From positions 1 through 29,184 of the IMG/VR virus record IMGVR_UViG_3300022230_000138: 29,184 nt of DNA; one strand, 5' to 3'. Position numbers and translations under genes: made by a program. Positions 23,216-29,184 of this stretch are shown one piece after another. The notes under the pieces were generated by a model. It was not told the origin of the DNA. It did no database searches and saw only the letters and a list, made by a program, of their open reading frames with translations. How positions within the stretch are numbered: position 1 is the stretch's first letter; each line of letters opens with the position of its first letter. This stretch comes from a virus.

Positions 23216-23566
23216 GTGAAAAGGATATGTGAAGGGATGCGCATACGCGTAAACCCCATACCAGGACTGGAAAACCCAATCGAAGGTGATGGGATCCGTG
23301 ACAACCAGACCAGGACTTTCATAGTCGCGGAAATCCGTGAAGAAGACGAAACAATCCTCCTCCATGAACTCCTGGATGGTGCTGTGAACAGGAATGGCGG
23401 CCCCATCGGGGCCACCATCCGGGTCACGCTGCAGGATCTTCTCCAAGCCTACATGAACACCCCCAAATGGGTGAGGAGGATTACGAAAACCCGCAGACCC
23501 CGCACGAAAAGACCTGGGAAGAAGAAAAAAGAGACGGATACAAGCGCAGAAGCGGGGAAGGAATGA
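23216..23566 (+). CDS. Hypothetical protein with a degenerate zincin motif (HELLD) and a basic C-tail
   Basis: GGAGGTGG RBS; ILLHELLDG at 23354-23380; ATGA overlap with the endolysin. Confidence 0.65.
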   Translation: MKRICEGMRIRVNPIPGLENPIEGDGIRDNQTRTFIVAEIREEDETILLHELLDGAVNRNGGPIGATIRVTLQDLLQAYMNTPKWVRRITKTRRPRTKRPGKKKKETDTSAEAGKE

Positions 23567-24501
23567 TGGAGGCTGAGAATATGAAGCTGGAGAAAGGAAT
23601 CGTCACGAACCAGGTCTTCAAGGACATGCAACGCCGATACAACCTATTCAAGAAAGAGAACAACCGTGAACCAAAAATAATCTTCATAGAGCCTGGTAAA
23701 AAGGAATATGTGACCCTAGAGACCTTCAAGGACATGGAGAAACGATATGAGAACTTCAAGAAGGAGAGGGGTCGTGAACCCCTCACAGTCCAAATCACAC
23801 CCCCAGAGAAGGAGGCGGTGAATCTAGAGAAAGGAATCATCACAAATCAGGTTTTTAAGGACATGCAGCGCCGATACAACCTCTTCAAGAAGGAGAACGG
23901 TCGCGAACCCCAAATAATCTACATAGAACCTAATAAAAAAGAATACGTGACCATAGAGACCTTCAAGGACATGGAGAGGAGATATGAGAACTTCAAGAAG
24001 GAGAGGGGTCGTGAACCCCTCACAGTCCAGATCACACCACCAGGGAAGGTCAAGGAGGCTGAGAAGCGCAGTGAAACCCTTCAAGCCCTCATAGATGAAC
24101 TAGGATACTTTAGCAACGCAACAGAACTCTACAAGCTCCTCACGGCGAAGGGGAAGTACAAATACTACTTGAACCGGCGATGCGGGACACTACGCGAAGC
24201 CGTACGGCGAATCAAGAAAGAAGGGATAAACTGTGCTGATGCCTGCACCCTCTTCACCGTCATCCTCCGCGAGATCGGGTACACAGTCCAGGTGGAGCAT
24301 GTCAGGGTCAAGTGTAATGATGGTGTGTGGTACGGTCACTACCTCCTCCGAGTGAAGGGCAGAGAATTCCCGAACACGTCAACGAACCCCTCACAGTGGA
24401 CTATATGGGATTATGTGAGCGCAACGAAGACGAAGCGGCCATTAGGGACACCGTGCTGCGTGGCTGGCTTCAAGCATCTGGATTGGGATGGTGTGAAGTG
24501 A
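23563..24501 (+). CDS. peiP: Pseudomurein endoisopeptidase (PeiP/PeiW-like endolysin); alternative start 23581
   Basis: Four FKDM.RY..FK.E.GREP pseudomurein-binding repeats. Catalytic GINCADAC (Cys 24232), HVRVKCNDGVWYGHY (His 24337) and WDYVSATKT.RPLG.PCC (Asp 24409), as in PeiW/PeiP. Confidence 0.97.
   Translation: MMEAENMKLEKGIVTNQVFKDMQRRYNLFKKENNREPKIIFIEPGKKEYVTLETFKDMEKRYENFKKERGREPLTVQITPPEKEAVNLEKGIITNQVFKDMQRRYNLFKKENGREPQIIYIEPNKKEYVTIETFKDMERRYENFKKERGREPLTVQITPPGKVKEAEKRSETLQALIDELGYFSNATELYKLLTAKGKYKYYLNRRCGTLREAVRRIKKEGINCADACTLFTVILREIGYTVQVEHVRVKCNDGVWYGHYLLRVKGREFPNTSTNPSQWTIWDYVSATKTKRPLGTPCCVAGFKHLDWDGVK
23587..24049 (+). repeat. 237-bp internal tandem duplication (two pairs of pseudomurein-binding repeats)
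   Basis: Units start at 23587 and 23824; long identical runs such as GATATGAGAACTTCAAGAAGGAGAGGGGTCGTGAACCCCTCACAGTCCA. Confidence 0.95.
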
Positions 24502-24523
24502 AAGAAGCATCCTGACCGCCTAT

Positions 24524-24704
24524 TCAAAAACAAACAGAAAGGCATATAAAGGATAATCAAAAACAAACCGAAAATCCTAGGAAGAATCCTGAACAAAAAC
24601 AAAAAAGGATGGTGGGGGAACATCACCCCCCACACCCAGAGACCACCAAAAAAAGGAAAGAAGAAAAAGGAAAGGAGAAAAGGAAAGGAGAAGAGGTGAA
24701 ACAG
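24524..24704 (+). promoter_or_regulatory. Right early promoter/leader module with repeated operator-like sites
   Basis: TCAAAAACAAAC(A/C)GAAA at 24524 and 24557 flank CATATAAA (24543-24550); third CAAAAACAAA at 24594; G5/C5 stem; 49-nt purine-only tract 24648-24696; GAGGTGA RBS. Confidence 0.6.
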
Positions 24705-25019
24705 ATGGCATGGGAAGAAATACGAGTAGAAACCCAGAAAGAAGCCAAACCATGGGACTACCACGAAAAGGTGAGCCTAGAAGGCTACGTGGAGCTGAAA
24801 AAGGAGAACACGGATCACGAGGGGAGAAAATACCTCACAGTGATCCTGAAAACACATGAGGGGGAACGATACTTCCTCCCACGCAACGTCGACCTCCAAC
24901 TAAAACTAAAAGACGTGGAGGAGGGTGATAAGCTCCACATACGCCACGCAGGAGAAGAAGAACTCCCCGACGGCCGAACAATCCGCCGATTCAAAGTCTA
25001 CAGGTGGATAGAGGCATGA
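24705..25019 (+). CDS. OB-fold protein, putative ssDNA-binding protein (104 aa)
   Basis: RBS supports ATG 24705, not 24609. W...SLEGY...Y.VIL....GE...L..N.DL...L..V..GD...I...G pattern; lies near erf. Confidence 0.65.
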   Translation: MAWEEIRVETQKEAKPWDYHEKVSLEGYVELKKENTDHEGRKYLTVILKTHEGERYFLPRNVDLQLKLKDVEEGDKLHIRHAGEEELPDGRTIRRFKVYRWIEA

Positions 25020-25033
25020 GGAGGGTGAACAGG

Positions 25034-25252
25034 ATGAAATACGGTGACTGCATGCGCACATTCAAAGTGCCTGCTTGGCTAGCTGAAGAAAAAGGACTCA
25101 TCAGGGAAAGAGTGACAGGGACAATAGAACGTGAAACACCCAAGGCCATACTGCTGAGAACACCCAAAGGGGAGTTATACTGGCTCCCCAAAAGCCAGAT
25201 CCGTGAAGAAAAGATCCCCGCTGATCAAACCACCTTGGGGGGAACAGGATGA
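25034..25252 (+). CDS. Small beta-barrel hypothetical protein
   Basis: GGGTGA RBS; RETPKAILL....E.YWLPKSQI motif, common in small viral proteins. Confidence 0.7.
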   Translation: MKYGDCMRTFKVPAWLAEEKGLIRERVTGTIERETPKAILLRTPKGELYWLPKSQIREEKIPADQTTLGGTG

Positions 25253-25797
25253 AAAACACCACCACACTCACAAAAACCTACACACCCCAAACCACCCAGA
25301 ACCCCACAAAAACACCCGAACCAAGAAAAGAACTCTACAAGGCCCTCCAAAAGGCCCTCAACGAACTCAGAAACCCCAAGACAACCAGGGAGAACCCGTT
25401 CTTCAAGAGCCACTACGCACCCCTCAGCCAAGTCCTCGAAGAAGCCAAAAAAGTCCTCAGCAAGCACGGACTCTTCATCTACCAGCGCGTAGGCAGCGAC
25501 ATCGATGAAACCAACCGCATCTGGGTTGGTACAGTGATCGCCCATGAGAACGGGGAGGAGATCAGGAGCGGGAAACTCTACATCCCCCTCCCCGACAAGA
25601 AACCACAAACCGCCGGAAGCGCCATCACCTACGCCCGCAGGTACAGTCTCATGGCCCTCCTAGGCGTCGCAGGGGAGGAGGAGGATGATGATGCGAACAG
25701 AGCCAGCCACCGCACCAGACCAGGCAGACCCCCAAGCAGACCCCCAGCCAGACCAGACAGGAGAACACGGGAGACGGAAGGTGGCAGGGCAGAATGA
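25249..25797 (+). CDS. erf: ERF-family single-strand annealing protein
   Basis: NPFFKSHYAPLSQVL and PQTAGSAITYARRYSLMALLGVA..EDDDAN signature. Confidence 0.95.
   Translation: MKNTTTLTKTYTPQTTQNPTKTPEPRKELYKALQKALNELRNPKTTRENPFFKSHYAPLSQVLEEAKKVLSKHGLFIYQRVGSDIDETNRIWVGTVIAHENGEEIRSGKLYIPLPDKKPQTAGSAITYARRYSLMALLGVAGEEEDDDANRASHRTRPGRPPSRPPARPDRRTRETEGGRAE
25287..25306 (+). repeat. 20-bp inverted repeat, copy 2
   Basis: CCAAACCACCCAGAACCCCA, the reverse complement of 323-342. Confidence 0.9.
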
Positions 25798-26642
25798 ACA
25801 CCACCACACCCGAAACACAGGAATGGGGGTGGAGAGGCATCATAGAATCACCACTCGAATTCCTCCCAGAAACACTGAACCCAGAGAACAACCCCCTATT
25901 CCCCGCCCCCAAGGACAAACCCGACACATACGGGGAGGAAACCCGGGAATGCCTGCAGATAATCGGGGAATGGCTCAGAGAAACCAGGAACCCTGAGAAC
26001 GCAATAGTAAGGTGGAGCAGGACGTTCCTGGAGGTGATGAACCAGCCACCCACCCACCGCAACATCCAACGAGCCCAGGAAGAAATGATCAGAGCATACC
26101 ACAACCCAGAACGCCGACCCCTCACCAGGACCATTAGTCTACTCCTCCGCCATGGAGTGAGAGGCGACGACCTGGTGCTGCGGGTGCAGAGACTCCAGAG
26201 CGGCTTCCACGCCCTCAGGGACTACCTGCTCCATGAAGACCCGCACAGGATCATCCTGGAAAGACGGAGGGACCCTGAAGGGGACGGAACCCTGATAAAA
26301 GGAGTCCTAATCACGAAAAACCCACCAAGCGTCTACTATGAAGAGATCCGGGCAAGGGGGGATCATCCCATCACAACCAGGACGCGGGTGATCCGCGCCG
26401 CCCCCACAGAAATCAGGGAAACCCACCCCATCGAGAACAAGGGCCATGGGGGCTTCCAAATCACCATGAAACCAGCCAGGAACCCCGGCGAGGAAGAAAC
26501 ACTCATCCGCGTCAAAGGAAACACCGCCAAAGGCATAATAACCACCCTCCACAGGATAGGCCTCATCAAAAAACCGGACCAAGCCACCATGGCCCTCAAA
26601 GCCATAATCAAAGAGAAAAAAGAGATGGGGGTGACGGGATAG
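25794..26642 (+). CDS. 282-aa paralogue of the N-terminal region of the downstream helicase-like protein
   Basis: ATGA coupling to erf. Collinear shared motifs LRET, AY.NP, VI.AAP, HPI and AL.A.I; no Walker motifs. Confidence 0.8.
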   Translation: MNTTTPETQEWGWRGIIESPLEFLPETLNPENNPLFPAPKDKPDTYGEETRECLQIIGEWLRETRNPENAIVRWSRTFLEVMNQPPTHRNIQRAQEEMIRAYHNPERRPLTRTISLLLRHGVRGDDLVLRVQRLQSGFHALRDYLLHEDPHRIILERRRDPEGDGTLIKGVLITKNPPSVYYEEIRARGDHPITTRTRVIRAAPTEIRETHPIENKGHGGFQITMKPARNPGEEETLIRVKGNTAKGIITTLHRIGLIKKPDQATMALKAIIKEKKEMGVTG

Positions 26643-28814
26643 ATGTTCAGGGATGATGAATGGGTCCTACCCAACCCCGGAAGAGAAAAACAGGAAGAAG
26701 AGGAGGAGGAGGCCAGGAGGAGGAATCCCTTCAGGGCCATCCCCCACCTCCTCTTCGACCAGGAAGACCTCCAAGCATGCTTCGACGAAAACCCGGGCCT
26801 ACAGGAGGAACTCCAACCCCTATACGCCGAGTACATAGCCGCCCTCCTCAGGGAGACAGGGATCCACCCTAACGACCTAGGAGACAGCATCAGGGACCTC
26901 GCCAGCCTCACCAACCTCCACCAAGACAGACACATACAACACGAAACCCACACCCTCCTCCAGAAAGCATACCGGAACCCCAGGACACCCGACACCATAC
27001 AGACACTGCGCCGGATATACCAGCTCCTCAACGAACACCCCGCAGCCGCCGAGGCAATAAACCTGGAAACCAAAGACGCGTTCAAAGAAACAGCGATGAA
27101 CATAATCCTCAGAAAGGCGGAGGAACAAGATACAATCATAATCCCCATAGGAGACACCGAGGAAATCCACATCGACAGGAACCGCATCTACAGGGCCAAT
27201 GAACGGACACGAAGACAGACACAGAGGGACAGGATGGAACTCATAGAAGAACCACCCAGACTATCAGAAGTCATCCACGCAGCACCCATCCTACTCCAAA
27301 GCAACGAACACCCCATCCTCGAAACCCGAACCGAACAAATCCTAATCAAACTCCCAGAAACCCCCAGAGCCAGGAACAGGAAAGAATGGATAGGCCCAGG
27401 AGACCTACAAGAACTCCACAACGAACTAGACAGGAAAGGATACATCATCGACCACAGACACAGCAAAAAAGCCCTAAACGCAGCCATAAACCACCTCCGA
27501 GAGCACGGACCCAGCATACAAACCAGAGAAGTCCACGAACCAGGCTACTACCTCATAGACAGCAAGGTAACCCGCCAAAACTACACCGCAGGCCACACAC
27601 TCCCCTCCGAAACCACAGCAGCACTAGACCTCCTAGAAGAACTCAGAGGATACTACCAAGGATCCGAAGACATCCTCGCAACAGTCCTAAAATGGGGTCT
27701 ACTAGCCCCATGGAACCACGTACTCAAAAAGAAGGGCGAGGACTTCCTCCCATGGCTCCTACTCTACGGAGACGCCCAAACAGGGAAAACCAGCCTCGCC
27801 AGGATCAGCCTCACACTCTACAAGCCACCACACGACCAGAGAATCATCACAGAAACCGGTGGAAGCGGATTCAACACACCCTACCGGATCGGCGAAGTAC
27901 TCAGCCAAACAAGCCTCCCCGTCCTCATAGACGAAGCCAGAGAACCCCTAGAACGCAGCAGCACCCGCGAAATCATCAAAACAAGCATACAAACCGACAT
28001 AGCCCGCGCAAAACAAAGAAACGACGAATACACCCAGATACCCGCCTACAGGGCCGCCGTGCTCACCACAAACTACTCACCACCCACAGATCCCGGCGTA
28101 CAACGCCGAATCCTGAGTATAAACTTCACACTCGAACACAGGAAAACCAGGGAGAAGATCAGGGAATTCCACGACCGGTACGGTGTCGACACCCCCAGGA
28201 GGACCAGGATAAACATCCTGGAGAAACTCGGCGCGACAACTGAACAACTCATACTCACCGACCCAAACATCATACTCGAACCCCGATCATGGCAGGAAAT
28301 CGCGGACAACCTCCTCACCAGGATCTACGAAGACGCCCACACACATCAACCCGAATGGACGAAAAGATGGGCGGAGAACGCCACGATCACCGAAACCGAA
28401 ACAGACATCCTCGAGGAGATCAGAAACCACATCCGCGAAACCATCACCCAGAAAATCCAGCGCACAACCATCCAAGACGAAGAAGGGAACCTCACAACAG
28501 GAACCGAAAAATGGCAGATCGAGAGGGAGGAACTCATCACCACCATCCTGAGGGCGGGAGCCTGCCCCGGCCTAGAATATTACGCCACGACAAGGGGACG
28601 GTACGTCCTCATATCCACCGCCCTCATCAGCCGACTCAGGAAGGAGGGGATCCCCATCACCAGCCTAAAAGCACTCAGCCAACTAATAGGATGGAGAGAC
28701 CCCTACCCCGTCCGGATGAAACGCCCAGGAGGAGGATACACAACACTGCGCAGGATCAAAATCAGCCTGGAGGAATTCCTGGACTTCATCCACCCAGAGT
28801 TCATCGATGATTAG
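26643..28814 (+). CDS. Replication protein: P-loop NTPase, SF3/AAA+ helicase-like
   Basis: Walker A GDAQTGKT (27768-27791), Walker B VLIDE (27921-27935), motif C-like VLTTN; GGGGTGA RBS. No primase catalytic motif recognised. Confidence 0.85.
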   Translation: MFRDDEWVLPNPGREKQEEEEEEARRRNPFRAIPHLLFDQEDLQACFDENPGLQEELQPLYAEYIAALLRETGIHPNDLGDSIRDLASLTNLHQDRHIQHETHTLLQKAYRNPRTPDTIQTLRRIYQLLNEHPAAAEAINLETKDAFKETAMNIILRKAEEQDTIIIPIGDTEEIHIDRNRIYRANERTRRQTQRDRMELIEEPPRLSEVIHAAPILLQSNEHPILETRTEQILIKLPETPRARNRKEWIGPGDLQELHNELDRKGYIIDHRHSKKALNAAINHLREHGPSIQTREVHEPGYYLIDSKVTRQNYTAGHTLPSETTAALDLLEELRGYYQGSEDILATVLKWGLLAPWNHVLKKKGEDFLPWLLLYGDAQTGKTSLARISLTLYKPPHDQRIITETGGSGFNTPYRIGEVLSQTSLPVLIDEAREPLERSSTREIIKTSIQTDIARAKQRNDEYTQIPAYRAAVLTTNYSPPTDPGVQRRILSINFTLEHRKTREKIREFHDRYGVDTPRRTRINILEKLGATTEQLILTDPNIILEPRSWQEIADNLLTRIYEDAHTHQPEWTKRWAENATITETETDILEEIRNHIRETITQKIQRTTIQDEEGNLTTGTEKWQIEREELITTILRAGACPGLEYYATTRGRYVLISTALISRLRKEGIPITSLKALSQLIGWRDPYPVRMKRPGGGYTTLRRIKISLEEFLDFIHPEFIDD

Positions 28815-28842
28815 ATGGAAGGGAGTCCCATCCATCCCCTAC

Positions 28843-28859
28843 TTCTTCTTTTTTTTATT
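28843..28859 (+). terminator. Oligo-T archaeal intrinsic terminator candidate
   Basis: TTCTTCTTTTTTTTATT about 30 nt after the helicase stop; a T-run on an otherwise T-poor strand. A second T tract lies near 28895-28910. Confidence 0.5.
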
Positions 28860-28919
28860 CTCCAAGCCAAGGATCAATGATTACTCCATCCCTCCTTTTT
28901 GTTCTTCTTCCCCAACCCC

Positions 28920-29184
28920 AGATCAGATGACTACCAATCTAACAGGGCGACTACTCCCCAACTACACCAACAATTGTAGTTCACAGCCAAGACCAAAACA
29001 TGCCCAGCAACCCCAAAACCAGCCATGCCCCACGACACACCATCGGATGGCCGAAAAACACCCGCTCCTTTTAGTAAAACAAGAAAGAAGAGATTTTATT
29101 CAGAATCAGCACTTTGAAAGAGCCTTATATTATATATATATTATATTTACTACAATTACTACATACTATATACAATCTATGTTA
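28920..29184. other. Candidate replication origin (AT-rich unwinding element with short ACTAC/GTAGT repeats)
   Basis: Non-coding; near-pure A/T run at 29125-29149; 9-bp inverted repeat AATTGTAGT (28972-28980) / ACTACAATT (29149-29157); lies next to the helicase gene and at the skew switch. Confidence 0.4.

Follow-up and report, generated by a model that had tools for sequence, protein, structure and literature searches.

A probable motor-less paralogue of a helicase N-terminal region, encoded directly before an MCM-like helicase gene in a virus of pseudomurein-walled methanogens

The DNA analysed here, called the window throughout, is the whole of IMG/VR record IMGVR_UViG_3300022230_000138 (29,184 bp, estimated completeness 81%), which comes from a tailed virus of a pseudomurein-walled methanogen. 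Our subject is a pair of neighbouring genes on its plus strand: a short gene of 282 amino acids (aa) without a P-loop (25794..26642 in the list of open reading frames, ORFs), and a long gene of 723 aa (26643..28814) predicted to encode an MCM-like AAA+ self-loading helicase of the Cch / SaPI Rep type (SaPI, Staphylococcus aureus pathogenicity island). We find that the short protein is very probably a stand-alone paralogue of the N-terminal region of the helicase encoded behind it. The joint statement that the 5' third of the helicase gene was duplicated, was kept as a selected gene, and now provides an accessory subunit of the helicase stands only a little below an even chance in our judgement.

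Common origin was first proposed in a preliminary description of this DNA on the grounds of collinear motifs, and these are indeed found where it placed them. In residues of the short and the long protein, LRET stands at 61 / 69, (H/D)R(N/H)IQ at 88 / 95, AY(H/R)NP at 101 / 109, VI(R/H)AAP at 199 / 210, HPI at 211 / 223, QI at 222 / 232 and AL(K/N)A(I/A)I at 267 / 277. The spacings likewise agree exactly, with 40/40 codons from LRET to AY(H/R)NP, 98/101 from there to VI(R/H)AAP and 68/67 on to AL(K/N)A(I/A)I. Direct comparison of the two sequences does not single out this similarity. The top BLASTP match between them has E=0.34 and lies off the collinear register, and Smith-Waterman as well as global and semi-global alignments reach z=0.4-1.5 against shuffles, which is not significant. 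Aligning the shallow alignments of close relatives of both proteins with hhalign is marginal (P=0.022, short 200-283 against long 209-291).

The evidence that carries the case comes from deeper profiles. An exhaustive HMMER search with the long protein collected 566 homologues of 21-35% identity, whose common core begins at about residue 150-250 of the long protein and reaches its C-terminus. In the family alignment, which comprises the best 150 of the 566, only 2-4 of the 150 sequences occupy long residues 1-140, and more than 100 do so from residue 190 on. Against a 147-sequence family profile, hhalign aligns the short family over short 190-279 = long 201-289 with E=1e-7 and a probability of 94%. 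The pairwise alignments with shuffles named in the preliminary description as a check thus remain without significance, while the profile alignment named beside them is significant. When the long protein and its 85% relative are taken out of the profile, the match persists with E=2.2e-7. A plain hidden Markov model (HMM) of the helicase N-terminal tier domain (NTD), built from 141 sequences, also finds the short ORF among the 2139 ORFs searched: E is 3.8e-7 for the copy in the window and falls to 1.1e-8 in relatives.

A chance resemblance of two compositionally biased proteins with separate origins would be in line with the failure of BLASTP and Smith-Waterman, and E, R, K, T, P and H are abundant in both proteins. 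It is hard to reconcile with the behaviour of the controls: 150 column shuffles of the short alignment, which preserve composition, score 13.1±2.4 with a maximum of 20.2, and the reversed sequence scores 15.3, compared to 50.9 for the real alignment. The match to a profile that lacks the neighbouring helicase, and the common register of independent secondary structure predictions described below, likewise speak against chance, which we regard as scarcely credible.

The N-terminal half of the similarity is less pronounced. Short residues 48-149 (25935..26240, plus strand) form a predicted five-helix region with the LRET, xRxIQ and AYxNP motifs and show weak similarity to long 56-161. With hhalign, short 53-107 against long 61-115 scores 22.5, a value that one out of 100 shuffles attains. 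For the N part (short 40-189), a banded Smith-Waterman alignment confined to diagonals +5 to +14, in a register set independently by the C-terminal match, is equalled by 7 of 1000 shuffles (p≈0.007). The predicted helices fall into place at offsets of +8 to +10. This is in good agreement with the DSSP strings of the two AlphaFold models, which came from unrelated alignments and match best at offsets +9, +10 and +8 (70%, 69% and 68%; the mean of 481 offsets is 37±9%). The order of elements is identical in both proteins: five helices, a three-strand block, more strands and two final helices.

From these comparisons, the homology of short 190-279 and long 201-289 appears solid, and paralogy across the whole of short 52-279 = long 60-289 is likely, with moderate support for its helical half. 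Profile, leave-out, HMM and secondary structure register all point the same way, and the early suggestion of an ATPase-less paralogue of the helicase N-terminus is borne out to this extent. The same holds for the suggestion that the short gene stops where the motor would begin: its end corresponds to long residue ~292, where the tier domain stops and the motor module starts. The short protein thus appears to be built from a helical extension specific to this clade and an NTD, ending at the motor boundary. Its NTD copy (short 190-282; 26361..26639, plus strand) is predicted to hold beta strands and two helices, and matches the profiles with a shuffle z of ~16. About 23 of 35 family-conserved positions are kept in it, counted where both proteins have a residue, and these are mostly core hydrophobics, Gly and Pro. 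A PriCT_1 domain (PF08708) in the duplicated region was considered after a feature-based lead in the ESM Atlas (0.92-0.93), and was rejected: none of ten N-terminal regions matched it in hmmscan at E<=1, and a single one of 74 full-length family members matches, at E=5e-4.

How the second copy arose is a separate question. The NTD copy shares 22 of 84 residues with that of its own helicase (overall identity is ~22-26%) and ranks 16th of 141 family members by score. The duplication seems to be old, or the divergence fast, because the copy is just as close to many other members of the family. The preliminary description had called it old, which fits an identity this low in a gene that is nevertheless under purifying selection (see below). 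The same numbers would suit a different event, namely capture of the 5' fragment of another, distantly related helicase gene with no duplication in situ, and at some positions the short copy is closer to the family consensus than the long protein. However, the helical extension is confined to the short protein and to the helicase of this clade, and both the length of the short protein and its end point coincide exactly with the domain boundary of the long protein. We therefore consider capture improbable. A duplication inside this lineage is favoured, since the common helical extension is undetectable elsewhere in the family.

The short gene is functional and under purifying selection, with a pairwise ratio of non-synonymous to synonymous substitution rates (dN/dS) of 0.14-0.20, compared to 0.21-0.24 for the helicase gene. 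The two genes are constrained in different places. In the short protein, the disordered N-terminal peptide is 91% identical between relatives, the helices 89% and the NTD copy, the least conserved part, 84%. The helicase shows the reverse, with identity lowest in its extension (79-81%) and highest in its NTD (93%); dN/dS is 0.40-0.55 in the former and 0.07-0.10 in the latter. Such reciprocal conservation, as far as the few sequences indicate, is the pattern to be expected if two copies had split ancestral roles between them. For the helical part taken together with the N-terminal peptide (25794-26240 in the window), dN/dS is 0.10-0.17 against 0.40-0.55 in the helicase extension (26643-27125).

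Outside its immediate relatives, the short protein is hardly visible to database searches. It has no match in Pfam, PHROGs, NCBIfam or the PDB sequences and no usable match in the ESM Atlas. Seven close relatives of 84-90% identity were found, and a word-indexed database returned only very close relatives for both proteins (84-93% identity). Its AlphaFold model, based on an alignment of 8 near-identical sequences, reaches a predicted local distance difference test score (pLDDT) of 50; with this model, Foldseek against the PDB gave noise only (best E=0.18).

The front of the short protein deserves separate mention. Residues 1-47 (25794..25934, plus strand) are rich in W, F and P and predicted to be disordered (pLDDT <50), while their mean identity of 91% is the highest of the protein. 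The invariant columns span W11-Y46. Although predicted to be disordered, residues 11-46 (window 25824-25931) are nearly invariant among relatives, with the pattern WGWRGIIESPLEFLPETLNP..P.FPAPKD.PDTY. It is possible that this stretch represents a docking peptide.

In all five close-relative contigs, which represent three distinct loci, the pair is adjacent, and the question raised early on whether relatives keep both genes is thereby answered positively. Tight coupling of the two genes is conserved. The details of the junction vary. At the end of the short gene (26627..26645, plus strand), the sequence reads as a ribosome-binding-like GGGGGTGA, located 8 nt upstream of the helicase ATG, followed by the TAG stop and this ATG. 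The in-frame abutment of TAG and ATG emphasised in the preliminary description does exist in the window (26640-26645). It is not conserved: biogas and digester metagenomes contain relatives whose helicase ATG falls within the short gene, so that the two genes overlap by 14 nt in different frames. Because of this, the in-frame arrangement appears to be incidental, and no read-through product seems to be implied. Fusion of the two proteins by read-through or frameshift was considered as well, and is ruled out by the differing frame relation in the window and its relatives. Longer fused versions of the short protein were looked for and none was found, which is weak evidence.

Contigs from metatranscriptome libraries of biogas fermenters, derived from relatives of 85-99% identity, cover both genes. 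The junction is spanned by three such contigs, which stem from two studies (26361-26885, 26498-26912 and 26558-26912). The RNA-library cover ends near 28.9 kb, where a probable DNA library continues; this is a weak hint. All of this is compatible with a single transcript, short of proof.

The short paralogue is an innovation of one small virus clade. We inspected 37 distant helicase loci within ±5 kb, drawn from Methanobacterium, Methanobacteriaceae, Archaeoglobales, Methanomicrobia and Nitrososphaerales metagenome-assembled genomes and from 22 viral contigs. The NTD model matches the helicase in all 37, and none has a second copy of the domain or a relative of the short protein within this distance. 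Genes of ~270-310 aa upstream of some distant helicases were examined as counterparts of the short gene and dismissed, as they are long ERF proteins. Searching viral contigs with the close-family alignment confirmed no related locus.

What does the short protein do? We propose, tentatively and at somewhat less than even odds, that it is an accessory subunit of the N-terminal tier of the helicase. Following duplication of the 5' third of the helicase gene (helical extension plus NTD) into a gene of 282 aa, the duplicate would have been retained as a separate selected gene, closely coupled to or overlapping its neighbours in the order erf - short - helicase. The NTD-like module of its product would attach to the hexamer's N-terminal ring or become part of it. 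The better conserved helices and N-terminal peptide of the short protein would then provide a function that the helicase's own extension is losing, for example a part in assembly at the origin or in contacts to the replication proteins of the host.

Several observations weigh against this proposal. The NTD copy is without the family's GP pair, a Glu and a conserved Arg, and its surface may no longer fit the ring. The contrasts in dN/dS rest on three sequence groups, and the evidence on the fold of the short protein consists of sequence profiles and secondary structure, its own model having the low pLDDT given above. The 37 distant helicase loci manage without a short gene, so that there is no general need for it in this type of helicase. 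Finally, tight co-expression would be expected of a stoichiometric inhibitor as well.

The last point leads to the dominant-negative control of copy number or superinfection considered in the preliminary description, next to an origin-binding or loader subunit. A motor-less copy would enter or cap helicase rings and lower initiation, and would in this way set the copy number, switch the replication mode (e.g., to ERF-driven recombination-dependent replication) or block a superinfecting relative. The structural premise, an NTD copy without a motor, is the same as for an accessory subunit, and diverged surface residues could yield a poisoning subunit. Inhibitory truncated initiators exist in other viruses, such as OBPC of herpes simplex virus and E8^E2 of papillomaviruses. 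Yet the gene is located directly before the helicase gene in the same tight operon and is made together with its target instead of being separately controlled, and the strong constraint on the parts outside the NTD suggests a positive role beyond ring poisoning. Dominant-negative action is as compatible with the structure, but it fits obligate co-expression less well, and we consider it unlikely. At the level of what is possible, the sequence allows a loader or accessory subunit as well as a dominant-negative control.

Origin binding is the least favoured role for the short protein by analogy, because the characterised relatives recognise their origin via the C-terminal domain. In SaPI Rep and Cch, it is a C-terminal winged-helix domain that recognises the origin; what the N-terminal domain does is described as unknown (PMC9371898).

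In a further scenario, the protein has become an adaptor that acts independently of the helicase ring: peptide and helical domain would recruit parts of the host replisome (primase, PCNA, polymerase), and the NTD copy would serve for self-assembly or DNA contact only. This would fit a helicase that is without the PrimPol domain which many family members have fused or adjacent. No Pfam primase or polymerase match was obtained in the scanned 23.4-28.8 kb of the window, nor among the precomputed matches for the helicase-flanking genes of relatives. The nearly invariant disordered residues 11-46 and the PCNA gene inserted immediately before the short gene in one relative would fit such an adaptor, too. 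Inspection by eye, however, revealed no recognisable PCNA-interacting peptide (PIP) box and no other familiar motif in the short protein, and the adaptor role is pure conjecture. We hold it to be no more probable than dominant-negative control.

The accessory-subunit proposal also has a stricter form. Here the short protein would be an obligatory second subunit, forming its own ring or a mixed N-terminal tier on the helicase, similar to the head-to-head contact of the MCM double hexamer, and would be needed for assembly at the viral origin and for coupling to host primase or PCNA. We rate this strict form as unlikely. If true, it would provide the first helicase cofactor shown to derive from the duplicated N-terminal tier of the helicase itself, and access to the function of this tier in Cch/Rep-type helicases.

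The long protein itself is best described as a replicative self-loading MCM-like AAA+ helicase, predicted to comprise an NTD, a motor and a winged-helix C-terminal domain in addition to its helical extension. Its model has a mean pLDDT of 87 (74 sequences in the alignment) and exceeds 90 over most of residues 200-720. The best structural match is SCCmec Cch (5dgk_A, Z 17.4, 422 residues, model 163-714 to chain 4-548), followed by SaPIbov1 Rep (8tch_B, Z 13.2, model 165-718). Many MCM motors match with Z ~13 over ~225 residues, roughly 313-580, at a root-mean-square deviation of 3.5-4 A. Neither the long protein nor any of 74 family members scanned matches a Pfam MCM model, and at Pfam thresholds the long protein has no DUF927 or DUF5906 match. 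Weak DUF927 matches occur in two and weak DUF5906 matches in 15 of the 74 members (best E 7.9e-07); the two DUF927/DUF5906 family matches with known scores are under the gathering cut-off. Judging from the model, the protein is thus related to Cch / Rep by fold and is not a member of Pfam DUF927, the family to which Cch and SaPIbov1 Rep belong.

Four parts can be delimited, all on the plus strand. The helical N-terminal extension (long 1-161, 26643..27125; helices H12-H161) is fast evolving and appears to be clade-specific, and shows no similarity to the N-terminal extensions of the nearest relatives of 680 aa. The NTD (long 163-295, 27129..27527) is the best conserved part and aligns with the chain starts of Cch and SaPIbov1 Rep. 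The AAA+ motor covers long ~296-590 (27528..28412) and carries Walker A GDAQTGKT at residues 376-383 (27768-27791) and Walker B VLIDEA at residues 427-432 (27921-27938). K382 (Walker A) and E431 (Walker B) are invariant in the 150 sequences, R455 and N477 invariant or nearly so. Secondary structure suggests a C-terminal helical and winged-helix-like tier at long ~591-723 (28413..28811), and the Cch/Rep alignments reach 714-718. Longer family members, of 850-1100 aa, have a PrimPol domain at the N-terminus. On an Archaeoglobales contig (L014), PrimPol is a separate gene (126-1061) that overlaps the start of a shorter helicase gene (1021-2679).

The pair is part of a plus-strand block of early and replication genes that encodes, in order, proteins of 136 aa and 82 aa, ERF, the 282-aa protein and the 723-aa protein. 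The gene for ERF, a single-strand annealing protein (25249..25797, plus strand; PF04404, E=3.7e-29), overlaps the start of the short gene by 4 nt (ATGA). In one group of relatives, a PCNA gene (PF00705) lies between ERF and the short gene (L002:3592-4332, L003:3638-4378); the window and the L004 group are without this insertion. At the distant loci, the position directly before the helicase gene is usually taken by a long ERF (13 loci), RecT or PrimPol. ERF of 240-311 aa followed by the helicase is found in L007, L010, L022, L023, L026, L027, L030, L031, L033-L035, L040 and L043, and RecT takes the place of ERF in L041 and L042. The recurrence of the ERF-helicase pair across distant viruses and proviruses of methanogens suggests a recombination-linked replication module. 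Upstream of the block, at 23467-24501, a pseudomurein endoisopeptidase with PMBR repeats is encoded (PF12386, E=2.6e-55). From 24500 to 29184, the plus strand is A-rich and T-poor (AT skew 0.36-0.54), and GC skew becomes negative from ~25 kb; both are unlike mid-genome. A blastn search of a phage collection gave no match for the DNA of the window.

Behind the helicase gene, the record ends in non-coding AT-rich DNA. An AT-rich run lies in this region (28815..29184), as does the left arm formed by repeats of the ACTAC(A/T)A type, inside which the record is cut. Relatives have the complete version, a TATATA run between inverted arms of 40-46 nt composed of ACTACTACA / TGTAGTAGT units. It is located 300-450 bp past the helicase stop in one relative (L004:8890-9060) and ~1 kb past it, beyond an intervening gene of 192 aa, in another (L002:8412-8576). 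SaPI origins are situated just downstream of rep (PMC7581432). By its sequence and by this placement, the AT-rich inverted-repeat region is a candidate replication origin.

Among known systems, Cch (PDB 5dgk) and SaPIbov1 Rep (PDB 8tch) come closest. Nearly their whole chains align to long 163 to 714-718 in the same three tiers, and in the window clade an iteron-like, AT-rich stretch behind the helicase gene may be the counterpart of the origin that SaPIs have at this place. They differ in that sequence identity to the long protein is ~11%, and in that the long protein is archaeal viral and has an additional helical extension of 160 aa. As operon neighbours of Cch/Rep, SSB (LP1413) or a polymerase-MP pair are named, and no stand-alone NTD paralogue is described (PMC7581432, PMC9371898). 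With archaeal and eukaryotic MCM, the likeness lies in the superposition of the AAA+ motor and in an N-terminal tier that precedes it, while a Pfam MCM match is missing and the structural alignments cover mostly the motor.

For the relation between the two genes, a partial parallel is offered by the Drosophila mei-MCM proteins MEI-217 and MEI-218, which are reported to trace back to one ancestral gene split into two (bioRxiv 10.1101/080887). There, each product is one half; in the virus, the helicase has an NTD of its own, to which the short gene adds another copy. In the Drosophila pair, the protein that resembles only the N-terminal domain of an MCM is encoded beside its motor-bearing partner and works with it. 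Motor-less forms of viral initiators are a second parallel: mastrevirus RepA compared to Rep, polyomavirus 17kT compared to large T and, in the opposite sense, T7 gp4A/4B. Such isoforms share the N-terminal part, lack the rest or differ in it, and modulate replication or host interaction. A single gene yields them through splicing or internal starts, and they do not differ in the part they share; the short protein, in contrast, is the product of a separate gene, diverged to ~25% identity.

Self-loading helicases of the MCM-like kind, and viral initiators with motor-less isoforms, are thus already known. A separate, diverged gene that copies the N-terminal tier of a helicase beside the complete helicase was not found in the literature compared or at the other loci examined. 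The pair would be a clear case of a gene that was duplicated in part and whose two copies then relaxed reciprocally. With ERF - NTD paralogue - MCM-like helicase - origin, it would also add a replication module to what little is known of the viruses of pseudomurein-walled methanogens in biogas reactors. Because tier and clade-specific helical module are here separated as a selected protein beside a complete helicase, they offer a two-protein system in which to ask whether the N-terminal tier of helicases of the Cch/SaPI Rep type serves ring formation, loading or the recruitment of partners.

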